From assembly GCA_964470555.1 (NCBI GenBank), contig CAYYDG010000004.1:33053-97052 (forward strand): DNA of 64,000 nucleotides. The letters are read 5' to 3'. Positions 8,876-62,849 of the stretch are shown here, piece after piece (position 1 is the stretch's first letter; every line of letters starts with the position of its first letter). A model generated the notes under the pieces. That model saw only the letters and a program-made list of their open reading frames with translations. It did no database searches and had not been told where the DNA came from. A program made the translations under genes and the position numbers. The stretch comes from an uncultured Heliomicrobium sp. Lineage in GTDB: Bacteria; Acidobacteriota; Blastocatellia; RBC074.

Positions 8876-9091
8876 TCAAGCCGCCGCCGGAGCTTTTTTA
8901 GCGTATTTCTTCTGGAAACGCTCAACACGCCCGGCAGTATCCACCAACTTCTGCTTGCCGGTGAAAAACGGATGACACGCGGAACAGATTTCCACATTCA
9001 ATTCTTTCTTGGTTGAGCGCGTCGTCCAGGTGTTGCCACAAGCGCAATGGACTTTGCATTCCTGATAATTTGGATGGATTCCTTCTTTCAC
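8876..9091 (-). CDS. rpmE: 50S ribosomal protein L31
   Basis: [48 protein letters not shown] matches L31. GTG start with AAGGAG 7 nt upstream; the ORF-track ATG 42 nt further up is probably an extension. Confidence 0.9.
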
Positions 9092-9583
9092 TTTCGTTCT
9101 CCTTTGCTTATTAAAGTTGCCTTTTGGCCGCAATCAGCGGCTACGGTCATATTCAGCAAGAAAATCATTGCCAGCGGGAAACAGGGAAAGTAGCCGAAGC
9201 CTTTTGGCCATGTCAAGCCGCAGGCAATTCAGCGCAAACTATGATGAGCACAGCTTTCACTGTCTAAATTTGCTTTGGCTGTCAAAGCATAAGATAGACG
9301 GTTCTCATCTTTGCGAGCTTCTTCGTAATTCGCGGTGCATTTAGAGTTGATGACGATGATGGAATGGTTGTGCTGGGAGCGATGTGTTTGACGTTGCGCA
9401 GAACAGGGCGATGTTGTAAGCGAGACCTTTCTTATAGCCGCAGAGCAAGATTTAAAGGTCTTCGCATTTGCCGTTGTGTAGCAGTGAACAGGTTCGACGA
9501 GAAGCCGGAGCATTATGCAAGCTGTCATAACTTGAAAGCGACAACATTCGACGTTCAATCTTTTCTCAGCCATGAATTTTTTC

Positions 9584-9612
9584 TTGACACACATGATAAA
9601 CGAGTTTATAAC
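9584..9612 (+). promoter_or_regulatory. Near-consensus sigma70-type promoter (TTGACA - 17 nt - TATAAC)
   Basis: -35 TTGACA at 9584-9589 and -10 TATAAC at 9607-9612 with an exact 17-nt spacer. Lies ~90 nt upstream of the small K/A-rich ORF in an AT-richer intergenic region. Confidence 0.45.
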
Positions 9613-9704
9613 CATATCTAGTGTGTTATTTGCTATAGACTACAAGAGATAAATCAACACTTCATCTTGTGGTTAGGCTATCACGAAGAGAAAGGAGAGA
9701 CATT

Positions 9705-9785
9705 ATGGCAGCCAAGAAAGCAGCGAAAAAGGCACCGGCCAAAAAAGCCGCGAAACCGGCGAAGAAAGCCGCCAAGAAGAAATAA
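9705..9785 (+). CDS. 26-aa Lys/Ala-rich small basic protein (MAAKKAAKKAPAKKAAKPAKKAAKKK)
   Basis: Strong SD (AAAGGAGAGA, GGAG 7 nt before the ATG). Consensus-like promoter upstream and a hairpin plus T-run downstream. Too short for the ORF track; composition resembles histone-H1-like/AlgP-type KAAKK repeats. Confidence 0.45.
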   Translation: MAAKKAAKKAPAKKAAKPAKKAAKKK

Positions 9786-9844
9786 GCTTCTTTAATGCGC
9801 CTTGTTTGCGCAACCTAAACTTATTGTCGAGATTTGATTCATAT

Positions 9845-9882
9845 AGGGAACGGTATTCATACCGCTCCCTATTTTACTTTGG
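9845..9882 (+). terminator. Rho-independent terminator after small K/A-rich ORF
   Basis: Stem AGGGAACGGTAT/ATACCGCTCCCT (11/12 pairs), followed by ATTTTACTTT. Confidence 0.45.
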
Positions 9883-9979
9883 CCGATAGGTAGACTCTGG
9901 AGTGAGCAATAAAACGTTGGCTACGCAGGGTAGCCAGAAAAGGTAAAGCTGATCAGAGAACTTACTGCATCAAATGTGT

Positions 9980-10831
9980 CTATAACCATCCAAGGTCACC
10001 ATGTCGCTCGCCGACCAGGTGCAGGAACAGTGACTCCAGCGTGTCGAACTGTTCTCCTGAGTTTTCGAGTTTGCCGCCTGTCATCAACTGCGATACATCT
10101 CCACGCCAGGCGACTTTCCCATGATTGATGATTGCCACATCGTCACATAGTCGTTCGACTGTTTCCAAGACATGAGTTGTCATAAAAACTGTTCGTCCAC
10201 CAGAGACAAACCGCCGAAGCCAGTCTTTCAGCATTGCCACGCCTGCCGGGTCAATGCTTTCAAATGGCTCGTCGAGAAACAGGATGTCTGGACGATGAAT
10301 GATCGAAGCAGCAAAGGCGACTTTTTTACGCATGCCGGTGCTGAAATCCGCCAACCGTTTATTCGTTGCTGAAGCCAGGTCCATTGCTTCGAGCAATTCT
10401 TCCACGCGGTTGCGAATCGTGGATTCTTCCAAACCGTAGATTCGCGCATTGAATGCCAGAAATTCATGAGCATACAAATGGTCAAACAGCCCCAAGCCTT
10501 CTGGCATGACACCAATTCGCCGTTTAAGAGTGATTGAGTTGCTGTTGAATTCCTGTCCAAGCAATTCGATCATGCCGGAAGTTGGGTCAATCAATCCCGT
10601 CAAACAGCCTATGGTTGTGCTTTTACCGGCGCCGTTTGGGCCAAGGAAGCCAAACATCTTTCCGGTCGGGACAGTTAAAGACAAATCGTTCACAGCCGTC
10701 AGGTTCCCATAACGTTTGGTCAGATTTGAAATACGAACGGCGGTTGCAAAATTAGTTGTCGAATTTGGATTGATGGTTTCAGTTTCAACAGATGCAATCA
10801 TCATTTCAGTTCTAGTCTCTGGCTCCGGCAA
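9980..10831 (-). CDS. ABC transporter ATP-binding protein (ABC-2 type)
   Basis: Walker [13 protein letters not shown] signature FSTGMRKKV, Walker B ILFLDEP, H-loop TTHVLE. Overlaps the upstream permease gene by 20 nt. Confidence 0.9.
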
Positions 10832-58769: not shown

Positions 58770-62528
<3,759 letters not shown>

Positions 62529-62849
62529 GGTTTCCTCCAAGGAGATGGACAGGCGACCAGACGGACGCCTTATGATTGGGTGGTTAGGCGAATGACTGAT
62601 GGCAGTCCTTCACCTGCTTTAATCAAAAAAGAAGGATTCGAGCTTAATTTATGAAACCGGAAATGGTTCGGAGATGAATCTTGCTTTCAGCAAGTCCTGC
62701 GTAATGCTGATGCGTTTTTGTGAGTGTCCAGCAAAGCTATTTGATTTGGTTTTTGAGCTTCATCGAAATCATGGAAGCTGCATCAGCGGCGCGGATTATC
62801 TGCCTGACTGAAAGAACCTGTCAAGGAAGGTAAGACCAAATAGGTTTTT

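Follow-up and report, generated by a model that had tools for sequence, protein, structure and literature searches.

The C-terminal domain of eukaryotic histone H1 and the protamines, the latter rich in arginine, are polycationic and disordered and neutralise the charge of DNA. Among ribosomal proteins, bTHX, bL37 and bS22 are strongly basic, highly expressed products of 24–33 amino acids (aa) whose open reading frames (ORFs) are easily missed. Mycobacterial Ku and Hlp carry lysine-rich repeats of the PAKKA type, which make contact with DNA and promote the joining or apposition of its ends (PMC3553676), and a role in chromatin condensation has been proposed for the unusually small basic peptide ScvA of Coxiella burnetii (PMC13568565, citing Heinzen et al. 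1996). Here we describe a gene for a Lys/Ala-rich peptide of 26 residues in a 64,000-nt stretch of DNA (hereafter the window; G+C content 53%) from an uncultured member of the Blastocatellia, phylum Acidobacteriota (GenBank assembly GCA_964470555.1, contig CAYYDG010000004.1, positions 33,053 to 97,052). This mini-gene, located by direct reading of positions 9300–10200 together with the ORF listing, spans window positions 9584–9880 on the + strand. Its sequence relatives place it in a large unannotated family of soil Acidobacteriota, and its product is probably a nucleoid-type polycation, rich in lysine and pared down to a micro-protein that stands alone.

A preliminary description of this DNA, made from its letters, had proposed a complete mini-gene with promoter, Shine-Dalgarno (SD) sequence, ORF and terminator, and we found every one of these elements where it had been placed. 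Two predicted hairpins, one in the leader and one after the stop codon, go beyond that description. The features, with their 5′ and 3′ untranslated regions (UTRs), are:

9572–9583, + strand: A/T-rich tract ATGAATTTTTTC, resembling an UP element, directly 5′ of the −35; alignability with the related locus L002 begins here, with near-identity from ATGAA
9584–9589, + strand: −35 hexamer TTGACA, part of CTTGACAC in the family as a whole
9607–9612, + strand: −10 hexamer TATAAC, separated from the −35 by a 17-nt spacer
9618–9704, + strand: 5′ UTR of about 87 nt, its start placed from the −10
9632–9678, + strand: leader hairpin of 14 bp, GC.AU.GACUACAAGA / UCUUGUGGUUAGGC, predicted by RNAfold and by RNAalifold on 9 lineages, with the SD left unpaired
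9691–9698, + strand: Shine-Dalgarno sequence AAAGGAGA, with its GGAG core at 9694–9697, 7 nt before the ATG
9705–9785, + strand: 26-codon ORF closed by TAA, with the product MAAKKAAKKAPAKKAAKPAKKAAKKK, from the ORF listing and its synonymous-dominated divergence
9796–9812, + strand: post-stop hairpin UGCGC-CUUGUUU-GCGCA, predicted by RNAfold
9823–9831, + strand: 3′-UTR motif ATTGTCGAG, conserved in several close relatives
9843–9880, + strand: intrinsic terminator predicted by RNAfold, with its stem at 9843–9872 (AUAGGGA-A-CGGUA UUCA UACCG-C-UCCCUAU) followed by UAUUUUACUUU

The signals had been called unusually canonical, a wording that is overstated for the −10, which ends in C; a sigma-70 scan does not list this −10 because its last base is not the highly conserved T. 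The combination TTGACA-N17-TATAA occurs once in the window, against 0.01 occurrences expected by chance. The family has two types of leader, and we compared the mini-gene with the relatives that share its own type, referred to as the window group (the window, L002, L081/82, L104/128, L133, L141, L151, L177, L215, L217, L218 and L220), and with a larger set, the MATKK clade (L087–L092, L095–L214 and L222). The −35 is unvarying in 10 window-group members, with a spacer of exactly 17 nt in this group, and of 94 unique family units that were examined, 81 have it. An A/T run lies just upstream of it in every window-group relative, and the −10 reads TATAAG in the other window-group members and TATACA in the MATKK clade. 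The extended form CTTGACA is present in four copies in the window against 7.7 expected, at 9211(−), 9583(+), 60371(+) and 62819(−), the first two being the promoters of rpmE and of the mini-gene. These promoters lie 370 nt apart and are built to the same CTTGACA-17 design; the rarity of the motif together with its presence at both supports it as a mark of genuine strong promoters in this lineage. From the position of the −10, transcription would start at about 9616–9620 and yield a transcript from about 9618 to about 9878, which at roughly 260 nt is longer than the transcript of about 180 nt suggested earlier.

As a side observation, the CTTGACA copy at 62819(−) stands just 5′ of a 560-aa minus-strand ORF (60858–62540) and may be another strong promoter.

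The reading frame itself carries evidence for a peptide product. Between the window and L002, the ORF differs by four substitutions, all of them at third positions and all synonymous (4 synonymous, 0 non-synonymous). Against L220, the most distant relative of the same length, 17 of the 81 nucleotides differ; third positions account for 13 of these differences, and the changes amount to 11 synonymous and 4 non-synonymous codons. The pattern with which family members were collected fixes the first two positions of codons 1–15, and the codon-position counts use only the codons beyond. From codon 16 onward, the window and L220 differ at 0, 0 and 7 first, second and third positions, respectively; the same-length window-group pairs with identical tails (9 of 13) show third-position differences only, and the pairs with L217, whose tail differs, give 4, 2 and 7–8. 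For the MATKK clade, minor-allele counts at positions 1/2/3 were 15/3/59 in the 23-aa class (33 unique sequences), 3/2/27 in the 27-aa class, 10/5/22 in the 28-aa class and 0/0/12 in the 29-aa class, and the stop codon alternates between TAA and TAG while its position is kept. In the family alignment, length changes among the ORFs correspond to whole AAKK, APAKK or AVKK modules. Since variation concentrates at third positions, lengths change by whole codons, and ATG, SD and stop are kept, the ORF appears to be translated and not merely part of a small RNA (sRNA), and we consider it very probable that this is a real, translated gene. The preliminary description had held that homologous loci conserving nucleotides without the frame would speak against a peptide; we found instead that homologous loci keep the reading frame and not merely the nucleotides, with synonymous-dominated substitutions and more than 100 loci retaining SD, ATG, frame and stop.

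The frame upstream of the ATG is not kept, as 1-nt indels separate the relatives between the leader hairpin and the SD. Because these indels break the upstream frames, and because the N-terminal extensions found in databases are unrelated to one another, the ATG at 9705 is taken as the true start. A 38-aa ORF extended to a GTG (9669–9785) was rejected on the same two grounds, the 1-nt indels in relatives and the mutually unrelated database extensions. A 42-aa Arg-rich ORF in the +1 frame (9667–9795) was also rejected, the variable sites falling at its first or second codon positions.

On the opposite strand, a hydrophobic ORF of 37 aa (window 9662–9775, −), MAAFFAGFAAFLAGAFFAAFLAAI... (MAAFFAGFAAFLAG...), is an exact mirror of the Lys/Ala ORF, in which the frame converts Lys to Phe or Leu, Ala to Ala and Pro to Gly. 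By this conversion, any K/A-rich gene creates a toxin-like shadow ORF, and the antisense ORF here is, as far as the sequence can tell, a by-product.

Searches of protein collections show why such a gene would escape notice. Neither the 26-aa nor the 38-aa version was present in a collection of 15 billion proteins by exact look-up, and a 40-aa translation of the region used as a query retrieved 17 proteins sharing one design: an unrelated N-terminal extension, a translated SD, and then M-[APTV]-KKAAKKAPAKKAAKK...KKK to the stop. By this design, these 17 database proteins are gene-caller mis-extensions of a tiny ORF. The earlier suggestion of a free-standing mini-gene missed by gene callers is thus borne out, the exact peptide being absent from the collection and its relatives being represented there in mis-extended form only.

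A metagenome scan with a back-translated pattern for M-x-x-KKAAKKAPAKKA returned at least 120 loci. Among the matches listed, 103 of the 116 complete ORFs are free-standing, at most 40 aa long (19–40 aa) and end in KK(K)-stop, 98 ORFs measure 19–29 aa with length modes at 23 and 27–29, and most of the loci carry GGGAGAA together with the ATG. The family thus comprises at least 103 free-standing loci of 19–40 aa that follow the formula M-[AP]-[AT]-KKAAKKAPAKKAAKK...KKK; viral contigs scanned with the back-translated pattern gave no match. The literature searched yielded comparators, but none of it describes a family of free-standing K/A peptides from Acidobacteria.

The same head also occurs on larger proteins. 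The first 16 residues, MATKKAAKKAPAKKAA, head HU-domain proteins in other contigs (PF00216, E=4.7e-12), and a near-identical K/A-rich head, with the first 15 residues MATKKAAKKAPAKKA, precedes a SWIB domain in another contig (PF02201, E=2.3e-22). Larger proteins with an M-A/P-T/A/V-KKAAKKAPAKKA head were seen at L100 and L171 (HU), L111 (SWIB), L160 (a Cys-rich protein of 70 aa), and L115/L193 and L167 (long K/A repeats); among these, two kinds have DNA-binding-type domains confirmed by Pfam, HU and SWIB.

Other lineages also have look-alikes, some of them in contigs whose neighbouring genes are of Planctomycetes type. Three such K/A peptide genes, L093, L094 and L221 (MAKKKAAKKAPAKKGAKK..., VAKKAAKKAPVKK... 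and MAKAAAKKAPAKK...), have unrelated leaders and a terminator consisting of a strong GC-rich hairpin with a T-run, and L094 and L221 also carry a hairpin just after the stop. At L093 and L094, the gene order is LpxB, M50 and mini-gene, and the L093 contig is the one with Planctomycetes-type domains.

Focusing more specifically on the window group, the untranslated parts of the transcript are conserved throughout. The leader alignment, which runs 20 nt into the ORF, has a mean column identity of 89% across 9 lineages, and AGAGAAAGGAGA together with the ATG is unvarying, the SD being predicted as unpaired. The leader hairpin is paired in 98.4% of alignment cells in the 9 lineages, against 26–49% when the partner columns were slid. 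Two pairs show a compensatory change and several have G.U variants, while most pairs never vary, and the covariation is statistically weak, with 36 of 500 shuffles scoring equally well; the structure is thus conserved on comparative grounds, and its covariation support is weak. A candidate pseudoknot in the leader, between AGUGU and the loop ACACU, is paired in 87% of cells, with two of its five pairs each broken in 3 of the 9 lineages. Beyond the stop codon, a post-stop hairpin of differing sequence is predicted in 8 of 10 window-group 3′ UTRs, the exceptions being L081, which folds differently, and L133, in which the stem is visible by eye but is not the minimum-energy fold. The 3′-UTR motif recurs as (G)ATTGTCGA(G/A) in L002, L151, L177 and L218, with the variant CTATCGAG in L133.

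The terminator hairpin and T-run of the preliminary description are predicted by RNAfold and kept by all relatives, but the stem holds one A.C mismatch, which a C-to-U change mends in L002, and the terminator is missing from the list of a simple scan. The stem in the window is followed by the tract TATTTTACTTT, whose last base is 9880, and terminators of the TAGGGG..CCCCTATTTT type (GGGGTGGG..CCACCCC-TATTTT) close all 10 of 10 window-group members. Against Rfam, the window and 13 family loci gave nothing at gathering score and only generic hairpins at E≤10.

As for the window group, MATKK genes have a promoter and a structured leader, here TTTTTTCTTGACAC-17-TATACA followed by two hairpins, with a leader ending AAGGGAGAAUAGGCAA-AUG in which GGGAGAA is the SD equivalent. 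Hairpin 1 folds in 68 of 68 unique leaders with 25 different stems, including U-A/C-G/G-C exchanges, and hairpin 2 folds in 59 of 68 with 12 different stems. The gene order in this clade is sdaA, mini-gene, rsmE: the mini-gene lies downstream of the L-serine dehydratase gene in at least 53 loci, and rsmE follows 56–198 nt downstream on the same strand in at least 76 loci, across which RsmE identity ranges from 56 to 100%. No rsmE was found in the window or at the other window-group loci. Series labels suggest that the MATKK contigs derive mostly from peat and soil metagenomes.

Two further observations concern this clade. In the three gaps between mini-gene and rsmE that were read (L087, L088 and L222), a GGGGGACGC..GCGTCCCCC hairpin has a poor T-run, and read-through into rsmE is possible. 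An extra conserved motif, TTGTTGACCATTTTTCCAC, lies about 30 nt upstream of the −35 (for example in L165 and L098) and might mark a second promoter, a distal UP element or a site bound by a regulator.

In the window, the mini-gene is flanked on the left by rpmE (ribosomal protein L31), a DUF1385 gene, prfA and prmC, all on the − strand by Pfam, and on the right by convergent genes on the − strand for an ABC ATPase (9980–10831), a permease and an M16 peptidase. Among GTDB genomes, the DUF1385 protein has relatives of up to 93% identity in metagenome-assembled genomes labelled Blastocatellia, Pyrinomonadaceae or Acidobacteriota. Among 80 Blastocatellia loci around DUF1385/rpmE, L002 alone (90% DUF1385 identity) carries the mini-gene block. 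The alignment of the two loci tells more than any other single result: the flanks are unalignable, identity starts at ATGAA-TTTTTTCTTGACA, some 10 nt before the −35, runs at about 93% through leader, ORF and 3′ UTR, and ends right after the terminator T-run. On this alignment, what is conserved is the mini-gene itself, as a self-contained unit, within an intergenic region that varies. Elsewhere its surroundings differ: at L081, it stands between genes for an M28 peptidase and a histidine phosphatase, and at L221 between unrelated genes, with a convergent gene downstream. Export through the adjacent ABC transporter was considered and rejected, the association being limited to the window and L002. 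No other K/A-rich coding segment was found in the 64-kb window.

Several details of these surroundings were recorded in passing. In all of the contigs L081–L086, gene calling places a 52-aa ORF, which has no Pfam hit, immediately behind the mini-gene terminator, about 120 nt downstream of the mini-gene. The L31 ORF of the window (8876–9133, −) has a 15-residue N-terminal extension outside the Pfam L31 model and the matches of its relatives, so that its true start is probably later, and its C-terminal end is a short K/A tail. Its promoter and leader form a block at 9146–9246 (−), CTTGACA (9211–9217)-17-CTACTT plus downstream sequence, which is common to L001, L002, L003, L014, L015, L006 and L007; RNAalifold gives it a small stem with some compensatory changes, and a comparison with Rfam matched no L31-leader family.

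We propose the following sequence of events, each step of which is conditional. A sigma-70-type promoter (A/T tract, CTTGACAC, 17 nt, TATAAC) would drive a monocistronic transcript whose leader hairpin would probably stabilise the 5′ end of the mRNA while leaving the strong SD exposed, and the post-stop hairpin and intrinsic terminator would close the transcript at about 260 nt. Removal of the initiator methionine is expected when residue 2 is Ala or Pro; since this holds throughout the family, Met1 is probably removed, which would leave a 25-residue peptide with 12 Lys and no acidic or bulky hydrophobic residue. On composition, a membrane or amphipathic antimicrobial role is unlikely: a peptide with no bulky hydrophobic residue and no export signal cannot be expected to act in that way. 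Electrostatic binding to a polyanion is probably the sole plausible activity. The peptide would correspond to a free-standing AAKK/PAKKA lysine-rich tail of the kind carried by nucleoid proteins, and could neutralise charge on nucleic acid, most likely nucleoid DNA, and so promote compaction or bridging. Nucleic-acid binding is favoured as the likeliest role because the same heads precede HU and SWIB domains, and the DNA contacts of the mycobacterial Ku and Hlp repeats point to DNA; that DNA or the nucleoid is the main target is a tentative assignment, somewhat short of an even chance. For the reading as a whole, a genuine monocistronic micro-gene whose product works on the nucleoid as a free-standing tail of the H1/PAKKA type, we regard the case as evenly balanced.

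A wider version would see a free-standing "minimal histone-H1 tail" of 19–40 aa, highly expressed in Acidobacteriota and possibly other soil phyla, that serves as a general counter-ion or compaction factor for the nucleoid and possibly for ribosomal RNA (rRNA), with feedback on its production through leader and 3′ UTR, for instance if the peptide binds the mRNA that encodes it, and that represents an unrecognised class of micro-proteins absent from annotations. This version is possible and distinctly doubtful.

Several observations weigh against the proposal of a nucleoid-acting peptide gene. The relatives were ascertained through protein similarity or the back-translated pattern, and only L002 is an unbiased orthologue. 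L001 and L003, the loci closest by the flanking gene, are without the block and have unrelated DNA upstream of the rpmE promoter; presence in L002 and absence from these two mark the locus as variable, so that its position gives no clue to function. No neighbour is kept across lineages that would favour DNA over RNA, ribosomes or polyphosphate as the target. For L093/L094 and L221, homology and convergence are hard to tell apart because of low complexity and unrelated UTRs. The UTRs are conserved as highly as the ORF, which goes beyond a simple model in which only the peptide matters; autoregulation or an additional role at the RNA level may lie behind this very high conservation. Finally, the antisense frame shares the wobble positions of the ORF, so that period-3 variation alone leaves the strand unfixed; the + strand is assigned because promoter, SD, terminator and G.U pairs, the latter functional only in + strand RNA, lie there.

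Among other accounts of the peptide, an accessory role at the ribosome, or a part in its biogenesis or hibernation through binding of rRNA rather than DNA, is rather unlikely. It draws on the place of the mini-gene 56–198 nt upstream of the gene for a 16S rRNA methyltransferase, rsmE, on the same strand in at least 76 MATKK loci whose RsmE proteins are only 56–100% identical, on the divergent orientation of the window gene to rpmE-DUF1385-prfA-prmC with the CTTGACA −35 in common with the rpmE promoter, on the strong expression signals, and on the precedent of the tiny basic ribosomal peptides bTHX, bL37 and bS22. However, length and repeat number vary freely (19–40 aa), unlike those of peptides held in a fixed rRNA pocket, neighbours differ by lineage with no rsmE in the window or beside other window-group copies, and neither the models of bTHX, bL37 and bS22 nor the PDB chains gave a match, a negative that low-complexity filtering weakens. 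The same chemistry would serve for polyphosphate granules or anionic envelope polymers, and the lysine-rich H1-like protein AlgP has been linked to polyphosphate granule organisation (PMC9239181); yet the conserved neighbours include no ppk, ppx or other gene of polyphosphate metabolism, the peptide has no signal for export, and the fusions found are to DNA-binding domains, which makes binding of these other polyanions quite improbable.

Three further alternatives would demote the peptide to a by-product or a regulatory device. A Lys/Ala-rich upstream ORF that acts as a leader peptide, attenuating a terminator and the gene beyond it, would account for the bias to two amino acids, the hairpins after the ORF, and the co-oriented rsmE after a hairpin with a poor T-run in the MATKK clade. 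But a co-oriented gene follows only in that clade, and in the window, L002 and L221 the next gene is convergent, leaving nothing to regulate; moreover, the stop lies 57 nt before the terminator stem, no alternative antiterminator pairing is predicted, and purifying selection acts on the peptide sequence itself, beyond its composition, and we consider attenuation very improbable. Much the same low probability attaches to a non-coding or dual-function sRNA in which the ORF is incidental or untranslated. The sRNA-like size and architecture of the transcript, UTRs conserved as much as the ORF, and the conserved hairpins and 3′ motif ATTGTCGAG fit such an RNA; third-position-dominated variation, whole-codon indels and the retained SD, ATG and stop speak against an sRNA-only reading, which was rejected, but not against a dual role, and no Rfam family matches. 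For the antisense hydrophobic peptide (9662–9775, −) as a type-I-toxin-like membrane product, with the + transcript as its antisense RNA, the mirror frame is always open and, with wobble positions in common, fits the period-3 variation equally well. Across 94 relatives, however, its start is not kept (TTG in 57, GTG in 24, ATG in 12, none in 1) and its length ranges from 10 to 118 aa, no consistent SD was seen in the 25 relatives with upstream sequence inspected, and the conserved promoter, SD, terminator signals and G.U pairs all lie on the + strand, so that this product is extremely unlikely.

Should expression of the mini-gene follow what its signals indicate, essentially all annotations would lack an abundant component that binds nucleic acid in a major soil phylum. 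Prodigal-type gene callers skip such a mini-gene or extend it wrongly, and trypsin-based proteomics would miss the peptide because trypsin cleaves after every Lys; a small-ORF model of the K/A peptide family in annotation pipelines seems warranted. If the nucleoid role holds true, no smaller lysine-rich protein of the nucleoid type would be known to stand alone, and the product would offer a simple system in which H1-like tails can be studied on their own. The family also provides more than 100 aligned examples of a strong acidobacterial promoter, structured leader and terminator, which are useful for building models of promoters and UTRs in a phylum with almost no genetics.

Compared with described proteins, the peptide matches none by model. 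Pfam gave no hit at E≤0.01 for the 26-aa peptide or the MATKK peptides, phmmer searches of the PDB with the peptide and a 17-member profile gave 0 hits at E≤10, and in NCBIfam the 26-aa peptide had no hit at E≤10 and the 38-aa version a single weak, unrelated one (Rv3852 family, E=1.7). A 132-aa relative from the scan has a sub-threshold match to Pfam HC2 (21 bits against a cutoff of 40). Membership in Hc1 (PF07432), HC2 (PF07382) or the linker histones was rejected, failing by model match and size. Membership with bTHX, bL37 or bS22 was likewise rejected: no curated model or ribosome chain matched and length and repeat number vary in the mini-gene family, whereas those ribosomal proteins have fixed lengths, specific Arg/Lys-rich sequences and curated models.

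The likeness to the tails of H1, AlgP and Hc1 that had been pointed out earlier holds for composition, the peptide being K/A/P-rich with 12 Lys, 11 Ala and 2 Pro, next to a single Met, among its 26 residues. Like the window peptide, Hc1 and Hc2 of Chlamydia and AlgP of Pseudomonas are K/A/P-rich low-complexity polycations, but they are roughly 5–14 times longer. The repeat number of Hc2 is variable, as in the mini-gene family (PMC2848022). The closest repeat chemistry is that of the PAKKA/AAKK tails of mycobacterial Hlp/HupB and Ku and of HU and SWIB proteins, in which the AAKK and APAKK units are identical; those tails belong to larger proteins, whereas the tail in the window is a 26-aa product of its own, with promoter, leader and terminator and no folded domain to lend specificity. 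Its AKKA and PKK motifs recall the H1 C-terminal domain, a compositional likeness with no evolutionary link. The nearest functional analogue that we can name is ScvA, which is likewise free-standing, very small, basic and encoded by its own gene. The sequences are unrelated: ScvA is Arg/Gln-rich, restricted to Coxiella and developmentally regulated (small-cell variant), whereas the mini-gene family is Lys/Ala-only and widespread in soil Acidobacteriota.

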